Positions 1,847 through 2,223 of a stretch of DNA of 2,223 nt are shown here, in pieces. The notes under the pieces are model-generated. The model saw nothing but the letters and a program-made list of their open reading frames with translations. It made no database searches and was not told the DNA's origin. The DNA comes from Escherichia coli. Its GTDB lineage: Bacteria > Pseudomonadota > Gammaproteobacteria > Enterobacterales > Enterobacteriaceae. The stretch lies in NCBI RefSeq assembly GCF_003334315.1, contig NZ_QOWR01000110.1; one strand, 5' to 3'. Position numbers and translations under genes: made by a program. Numbering within the stretch: the stretch's first letter is position 1; the number at the start of each line of letters is the position of its first letter.

Positions 1847-2149
1847 ATGAAATTGCACCATAGAATGCTCCGGCATTTTATCGCCGCAAGTGTCATTGTG
1901 CTGACATCTTCCTTCCTTATTTTTGAACTTGTCGCCAGCGACAGAGCAATGAGTGCCTATCTGCGCTATATCGTGCAGAAAGCAGACTCCTCCTTTCTTT
2001 ATGATAAGTATCAGAATCAGAGTATTGCCGCGCATGTGATGCGCGCTCTCGCTGCTGAGCAGTCGGAAGTGTCGCCAGAACAGCGGCGCGCCATCTGCGA
2101 GGCTTTTGAGTCTGCCAATAACACCCATGGCTTAAACCTGACTGCCTAG
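1847..2149 (+). pseudogene. dgcJ: dgcJ (yeaJ) diguanylate cyclase gene, 5' fragment (first 100 codons: N-terminal TM anchor plus start of the periplasmic sensor domain), truncated by the IS2 insertion; the TAG stop at 2147-2149 is the first triplet of the IS2 end
   Basis: The ATG at 1847 with a good SD encodes MKLHHRMLRHFIAASVIVLTSSFLIFELVASDRAMSAYLRYIVQKADSSFLYDKYQNQS..., which I recognise as the N-terminus of E. coli YeaJ/DgcJ (about 496 aa full length, from memory). The frame closes at 2147-2149, exactly where IS2 terminal sequence begins, and no GGDEF domain is present in the window. Confidence 0.8.
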
Positions 2150-2188
2150 ACTGGCCCCCTGAATCTCCAGACAGTTGGTATCACTTAA
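2147..2188 (+). repeat. IS2 left terminal inverted repeat (IRL), roughly 41-42 bp
   Basis: Starts TAGACTGG and contains the CCAGACA...TATCACTTAA block shared by both IS2 ends. The candidate 5-bp target-site duplication copy is ctgcc at 2142-2146. Confidence 0.6.
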
Positions 2189-2223
2189 GTTAGTGATAGT
2201 CTTAATACTAGTTTTTAGACTAG
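2147..2223 (+). mobile_element. IS2 (IS3 family) left end: terminal inverted repeat and leader upstream of the transposase gene; the element continues beyond the right window edge
   Basis: TAGACTGGCCCCCTGAATCTCCAGACA...TATCACTTAA...GTGATAGTCTTAATACTAGTTTTTAGACTAG matches my recollection of the IS2 left end. The orfA (insC) start codon would lie about 10 nt past the window edge. Recall-based; a few internal positions differ from the IS2 sequence as I remember it. Confidence 0.8.

Follow-up and report, generated by a model that had tools for sequence, protein, structure and literature searches.

Sequence comparison places an ISEc27-type insertion after codon 100 of the diguanylate cyclase gene dgcJ in a natural Escherichia coli clone

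The stretch of DNA analysed here (the window, 2223 nt) is one whole short-read contig of Escherichia coli, QOWR01000110.1 of assembly GCA_003334315.1, with repeat overhangs at both ends. It opens with an IS1 terminus (1-126), which holds a partial insA on the minus strand with a Zn_ribbon_InsA match and ends in …GCATCACC. K-12-type DNA follows (127-2146) and comprises the K-12-type cdgI gene (191-1666), located 5' of dgcJ, and the first 100 codons of dgcJ itself. A second insertion sequence contributes the remaining bases (2147-2223), which are part of its left end. We aligned the K-12-type portion with MG1655 and found an ungapped match with 3 mismatches in 2020 nt, at positions 283, 414 and 1459, every one of them within cdgI. 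The CdgI protein allele encoded here is rare; its exact sequence is on record in nine contigs, namely the complete genome AP027445.1, about seven contigs of ~2 kb and one further contig. A scan for promoters and terminators inside the window gave matches at chance level only.

Between the IS1 junction at 126/127 and the cdgI start codon (ATG, 191) there are 64 nt, and the native upstream promoter region of cdgI may have been displaced or lost at this edge. IS1 also adjoins cdgI in 12 complete E. coli genomes (e.g. ETEC O25 strains), about 18 nt from the site in the window.

The reading frame at the right of the window had been assigned in the initial annotation to dgcJ, with a Shine-Dalgarno sequence and an ATG start, and our comparison bears this out. 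Positions 1847-2146 match codons 1-100 of MG1655 dgcJ at 300/300 nt (exact match to 4042-4341 of the MG1655 reference L002). The annotated start of the MG1655 coding sequence (L002 4042) corresponds to the window ATG at 1847-1849, and a Shine-Dalgarno-like AGGAG (1831..1835, plus strand) lies 11 nt 5' of this ATG, in an upstream sequence identical to that of the K-12 dgcJ start. Orthology is supported by this identity from the annotated start codon onwards. The gene order also agrees, with cdgI upstream in the window and yeaK, yeaL and nimR downstream in contigs of the same clone (L025 and L026).

The cut-short dgcJ ORF (1847..2149, plus strand) consists of 100 native sense codons, the last of which encodes Ala100, followed by an IS-derived TAG stop at 2147-2149. 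We calculated the Kyte-Doolittle profile with a 19-residue window and found a maximum of 2.26 at residue 11 (FIAASVIVLTSSFLIFELV). The 100-aa product has a single hydrophobic segment, residues 11-29, and codons 11-29 (1877..1933, plus strand) were assigned to the N-terminal transmembrane anchor, TM1. Codons 31-100 (1937..2146, plus strand) encode the start of the periplasmic GAPES1 sensor domain, and the product has a precomputed Pfam GAPES1 match. The anchor and the sensor start noticed earlier are therefore both encoded. Full-length K-12 DgcJ contains GAPES1 at 31-304, a second hydrophobic segment from about residue 308 and GGDEF at 346-494. The functional architecture, with TM1, GAPES1, TM2 and GGDEF in one polypeptide, is missing here: the ORF ends after residue 100, and what remains is TM1 with 70 of the 274 GAPES1 positions, TM2 and GGDEF being absent. 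Judged from these alignments, dgcJ in the window is a pseudogene allele.

On the minus strand, a 101-aa ORF (1823-2128) overlaps the 5' part of dgcJ. It was called as a gene without a Pfam match in some assemblies with a broken dgcJ (L028, L033, L035), and it is probably a spurious call.

Identity to K-12 breaks off exactly after 2146 (…AACCTGACTGCC). Beyond this position, K-12 reads CATAAATACC (His101…), whereas the window reads TAGACTGGCCCCC (TAGACTGGCCCCCTG…). The uninterrupted (empty-site) sequence across the insertion point is CTGCCCATAAATACC. The earlier view that dgcJ is cut after codon 100 by a TAG that opens an IS left end was thus upheld. We found that 2147-2223 (plus strand), the first 77 nt of the element on its IRL side, matches at 77/77 nt the left end of a 1331-bp insertion sequence from E. 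coli 5270 (reference L001, 3005-3081), and that 2143-2223 (81 nt) has 100% matches in several complete E. coli chromosomes (megablast, E=1e-33). The E. coli 5270 element occupies L001 3005-4335 and carries the 5-bp direct repeat GTGCC on both sides. Because this duplication bounds the element, we set the IS ends at TAGACTGG… and …CCAATCCA.

The coding sequence of the E. coli 5270 element starts at element position 92 and is described in RefSeq as 'IS3-like element ISEc27 family transposase, programmed frameshift'; the element contains long open frames at element nt 17-454 and 397-1317, which overlap. The strand of this transposase corresponds to the plus strand of the window, on which the transposase start is expected about 15 nt past the window end. 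The transposase-upstream (left) end of the element abuts the 5' part of dgcJ, in agreement with the co-orientation of element and gene proposed before. Its terminal match to the bounded 1331-bp element and its 5-bp duplication place the inserted element in the IS2 group of the IS3 family. The element bases visible in the clone amount to 77 nt on the left and 29 nt on the right, and we infer a full-length interior for the dgcJ copy. The 5-bp targets of the two copies are alike, GTGCC in E. coli 5270 (L001 3000-3004 and 4336-4340) and CTGCC in the window (2142-2146), hinting at a target preference of ISEc27-type elements across the two sites compared.

The left copy of the target-site duplication, CTGCC (2142..2146, plus strand), directly precedes the element. 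Three of the ~2-kb contigs with the window's CdgI allele, from the assemblies GCA_002190225.1 (L021), SRR10357290 (L022) and GCA_012531215.1 (L023), agree with the window at 100% identity along the whole overlap, and the CTGCC|TAGACTGG junction is also present in two of these three same-clone assemblies (L021 and L022). Thus, the left junction is reproducible across independent assemblies (NCBI and Logan) of one clone. It was found in none of the 5,426 complete RefSeq E. coli genomes, and the exact left junction gave 0 matches in GTDB species representatives.

The right junction was searched with a predicted partial protein made from 29 nt of the IS right end, CTGCC and the dgcJ 3' part (SVWKYRGQST-AHKYPG…). 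The predicted 407-aa right-junction protein (K-12 E151 allele) has an exact record in 3 contigs, including SRR10357290_355. The other variants of this protein (GTG-start K151, GTG-start E151 and partial K151) had no match, and the predicted right junction gave 0 matches in JGI metagenome contigs. The right-junction contigs L026 and L025 open with AAGTGTATGGAAATATAGGGGCCAATCCA, which comprises 29 nt of the IS right end, CTGCC at positions 30-34 and then CATAAATACC…. The DNA after CTGCC (2666 nt) is 100% identical to K-12 and covers the dgcJ 3' part, yeaK and yeaL. Both the left and the right junction are present in sample SRR10357290, and ERR271230 has a right junction like that of SRR10357290.

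The initial annotation had set out beforehand what should lie to the right of a simple insertion, namely an IS right end, a second CTGCC and an in-frame continuation of dgcJ. All of these were found in the same-clone sample SRR10357290, with a right end that is ISEc27-like. The right junction is known from such same-clone samples, and GCA_003334315.1 itself yielded the left junction only. CTGCC occurs once at the insertion site in K-12, and the same clone has one copy on either side of the element. The empty site that had been expected in K-12 was found in MG1655 and likewise in AP027445.1, which encodes the window's CdgI allele and an intact 496-aa DgcJ with E151K and carries no IS. Every downstream protein is K-12-identical, and no lineage-specific downstream allele could serve as a marker.

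We weighed these observations against other readings of the element and of its junctions. The initial annotation had named the element IS2. The two share the length class and the terminal TAGACTGGCCCCCTGAATCTCCAGACA, 2147-2223 matches K-12 IS2A at 70/77 nt (91%, with mismatches at IS positions 28-32, 43 and 45), and IS2, like the ISEc27-type element, makes 5-bp duplications. However, the left end matches the 'ISEc27 family' element at 77/77, the right end from the same clone (29 nt) matches the ISEc27-like element at 29/29 and IS2 at 26/29, and the E. coli 5270 element is 81% identical to IS2A at the nucleotide level over its full length (ungapped over 1331 nt). By the ISfinder convention, an IS2 isoform shows at least 95% nucleotide identity, and the left end (91%), the right end (26/29) and above all the two reference elements (81%) fall short of this threshold. 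The matches in 5,426 complete genomes are likewise split into a class of at least 99% identity (276 records) and a class of 90-95% identity (5534 records); these classes, defined by identity without an annotation check, are consistent with two distinct elements. We therefore regard IS2 proper as extremely unlikely and drop that name. The alignments identify the inserted element as ISEc27 type within the IS2 group of the IS3 family, a different IS from IS2. Naming IS2 by eye from IS2-like ends in E. coli drafts is unsafe, because ISEc27-type elements have the same first 27 nt. Regarding the junction, the contig ends (126 nt of IS1 and 77 nt of the IS) are typical assembler repeat overhangs, and a contig end misjoined to a repeat k-mer would look similar. 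Such an artefact has a negligible probability in view of the identical junction in independent NCBI and Logan assemblies and of the complementary right junction with the expected target-site duplication on record. There is more to be said for an IS-mediated deletion, inversion or rearrangement that removed or moved the dgcJ 3' part: the window ends within the IS and has an IS on both flanks (IS1 at 1-126), the clone is rich in IS and IS copies frequently undergo homologous recombination, our look-ups gave no right junction from GCA_003334315.1 itself, and short-read contigs are compatible with a later IS-IS recombination parting the dgcJ halves. We nevertheless consider it very unlikely, since SRR10357290, whose left contig is 100% identical to the window, has the matching CTGCC, the complete dgcJ 3' part and normal downstream synteny, ERR271230 gives the same picture, and a target-site duplication that matches on both sides is the mark of a primary simple insertion. 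Taken together, the junction sequences show a simple co-oriented insertion with a 5-bp duplication of CTGCC. The earlier interpretation as a whole is partly supported, being right in most points but not in the name of the element.

Based on these data, we propose that a 1331-bp ISEc27-type IS (IS3 family, IS2 group) entered dgcJ by transposition, landing co-oriented with the gene between codons 100 and 101 and duplicating CTGCC, its 5-bp target. The leading TAG of the element is in the dgcJ frame, so that translation ends after Ala100. The predicted product is a 100-residue peptide made up of the membrane anchor plus roughly one quarter of the GAPES1 sensor. The 3' part of dgcJ (1.2 kb) is still intact 1.3 kb further downstream, parted from the promoter, the ribosome-binding site and the signal-anchor, and therefore a null allele for DgcJ cyclase activity is expected. 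It is also a reasonable inference from the orientation that read-through from dgcJ would enter the transposase leader. Loss of DgcJ would then weaken NfrB-dependent production of the NGR glycan and lower the susceptibility to N4 and other NGR-dependent phages. The DNA alignments of the window show directly which gene was hit, where it is broken, the type of IS and its orientation; the duplicated target and the unbroken 3' part are seen in the alignments of the same-clone samples. The loss of DgcJ function is deduced from this structure. The lower NGR glycan and the lower N4 susceptibility are expected by analogy with K-12, where both dgcJ::IS1 (CGSC 7740) and a dgcJ deletion confer strong resistance to phage N4 (PMC8669472). 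In the same study, complementation for N4 required catalytically active DgcJ, with catalytically dead DgcJ failing, and point mutants in the periplasmic sensor phenocopied the dgcJ deletion; N4 sensitivity of K-12 varied with the medium and could be DgcJ-independent (arginine effect). By this analogy, a peptide without three quarters of the sensor and the whole cyclase domain presumably cannot fill the role of DgcJ in N4 infection, and the clone is probably resistant to N4-type phages. The explanation as a whole, that is, an ISEc27-type insertion cutting dgcJ after codon 100, a null allele and a phage effect by analogy, is in our judgement highly probable.

The reading as a null allele would fail if the 3' fragment still worked. 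In this case, it would be expressed by read-through from the IS and start at a GTG in the right end or at Met149, giving a sensor-less protein with an intact GGDEF that makes c-di-GMP. We found a GTG 37 nt inside the right end of the IS (L026/L025 1-40, L001 4290-4335) from which the dgcJ frame is uninterrupted, and the resulting ORF of 410 codons would encode 13 IS-encoded residues followed by DgcJ 99-496. Furthermore, the 348-aa ORF from Met149 is routinely called in other broken dgcJ alleles, and Shigella DGC genes degenerated by premature stops can keep some activity, with pseudogenes whose stops precede an intact GGDEF still raising c-di-GMP (PMC11327459). We keep an active 3' fragment as a low-probability rival because some of these Shigella cyclase pseudogenes stay active. 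Against it, no Shine-Dalgarno sequence was found ahead of the right-end GTG, and no sigma-70-like outward promoter at the IS right junction, relaxed thresholds included. With TM1 gone, the leftover sensor and TM2 would lack their native topology, and the action of DgcJ on NfrB is specific and sensor-dependent, as indicated by the periplasmic point mutants that phenocopy the deletion (PMC8669472). The stop codon of the transposase is at element nt 1318-1320 (coding sequence end at L001 4324), with 11 nt left to the IS end, and the transposase frame at the right end, read from the sequence, differs from that of dgcJ. A working 3' fragment is thus improbable in our view. The same low standing applies to the idea, drawn from the Shigella analogy, that the insertion might rewire dgcJ so that c-di-GMP is made by a sensor-less fragment uncoupled from the periplasmic signal. 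We retain the null allele produced by a simple ISEc27-type insertion as the preferred reading.

Breakage of dgcJ was also observed outside this clone. The 348-aa C-terminal DgcJ ORF from Met149 occurs in 552 blocks of the assembly collection, and in other lineages (L027-L039) N-terminal fragments of 95, 112, 130 or 139 aa lie ahead of this ORF. One of these contigs (L030) has a different IS (DDE_Tnp_1) ahead of the 348-aa ORF. This suggests that dgcJ has been broken repeatedly and independently within its first ~150 codons across E. coli. Selection by NGR-dependent phages may account for this, as may relaxed constraint.

A look-up of the exact 100-aa product returned many contigs. All those displayed end in native dgcJ (CTGCC, CTGCCC or CTGCCCA), and none of them has IS bases at its end. 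Prefix look-ups gave 91 blocks at 100 aa vs 54 at 101 aa and 46 at 95 aa, the latter two as controls. These control counts are of similar order, and we therefore do not read the contig ends as an insertion hot-spot at codon 100. Logan contigs from a single project (SRR77862xx) resemble K-12 here, L006 with 100% identity to K-12 over 4341 nt. Contigs L006, L008, L009 and L010 end exactly at …CTGACTGCC, the position of the IS insertion, and L015 ends at …CTGCCCATAA; no IS bases are present at the ends of these five contigs. Contigs of other lineages end 1-2 nt past the codon-100 position. The contig ends near codon 100 might stem from mixed populations, homopolymer errors or chance.

The closest known counterpart of the allele is dgcJ::IS1 of K-12 MG1655 CGSC 7740 (Sellner et al. 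2021, PMC8669472), in which an IS in the same gene also splits the sensor part from GGDEF. The two differ in the element, IS1 (IS1 family) in K-12 and an ISEc27-like IS3-family element here, and in its place: in MG1655-type records, IS1 sits 3' of codon 100 and separates a GAPES1 fragment from a GGDEF fragment, whereas the present insertion lies directly after codon 100. They also differ in background, since dgcJ::IS1 belongs to a laboratory strain and the window allele to a clone of natural isolates with SNPs relative to K-12. For the K-12 allele, N4 resistance and its reversal by restoration of dgcJ are documented (PMC8669472).

The element itself resembles the ISEc27-family copy of E. coli 5270 (NZ_CP103529.1 2005242-2006572), with 100% identity over the visible left 77 nt and right 29 nt, the dgcJ copy being compared by its ends. 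The E. coli 5270 copy (1331 bp, with a two-ORF transposase and a programmed frameshift) sits in an ArdC-family gene and is flanked by the duplication GTGCC, whereas the copy in dgcJ is flanked by CTGCC. IS2A (NC_000913.3 381260-382590) shares with the ISEc27-type element the IS2 group, the length of 1331 bp, the first 27 nt and the TAGACT…AATCCA termini, and 5-bp duplications are typical of IS2 too. It is nevertheless a distinct IS by the ISfinder convention, given 81% identity overall, 70/77 on the left and 26/29 on the right. An expansion in copy number of the ISEc27-type element was reported in stocks of E. coli J53 (PMC8417528).

Degenerate DGC genes of S. flexneri (PMC11327459) are also interrupted 5' of an intact GGDEF, one of them (dgcE) by an IS. 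In contrast, dgcJ of S. flexneri carries a truncating deletion and is left without GGDEF (PMC11327459), whereas the clone described here keeps the GGDEF-coding part 3' of the IS. Together with flanks that match K-12 at 99.85-100% identity, this difference makes a Shigella source unlikely. It is well known that GGDEF genes, dgcJ included, can be disrupted by an IS, and the element is a catalogued IS type; the event is an ordinary IS-mediated pseudogenisation. We found no description of this dgcJ::ISEc27-type allele in the literature, nor any paper citing the assembly and run accessions. It is a new instance, known from a small group of clonal sequenced isolates and found in none of the complete RefSeq E. 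coli genomes searched. The allele represents a natural loss-of-function variant of dgcJ, and DgcJ is the one cyclase shown to license infection by phage N4 and other NGR-dependent phages. Isolates of the clone are therefore predicted to resist these phages, and this predicted resistance would be relevant for host-range prediction in phage therapy.
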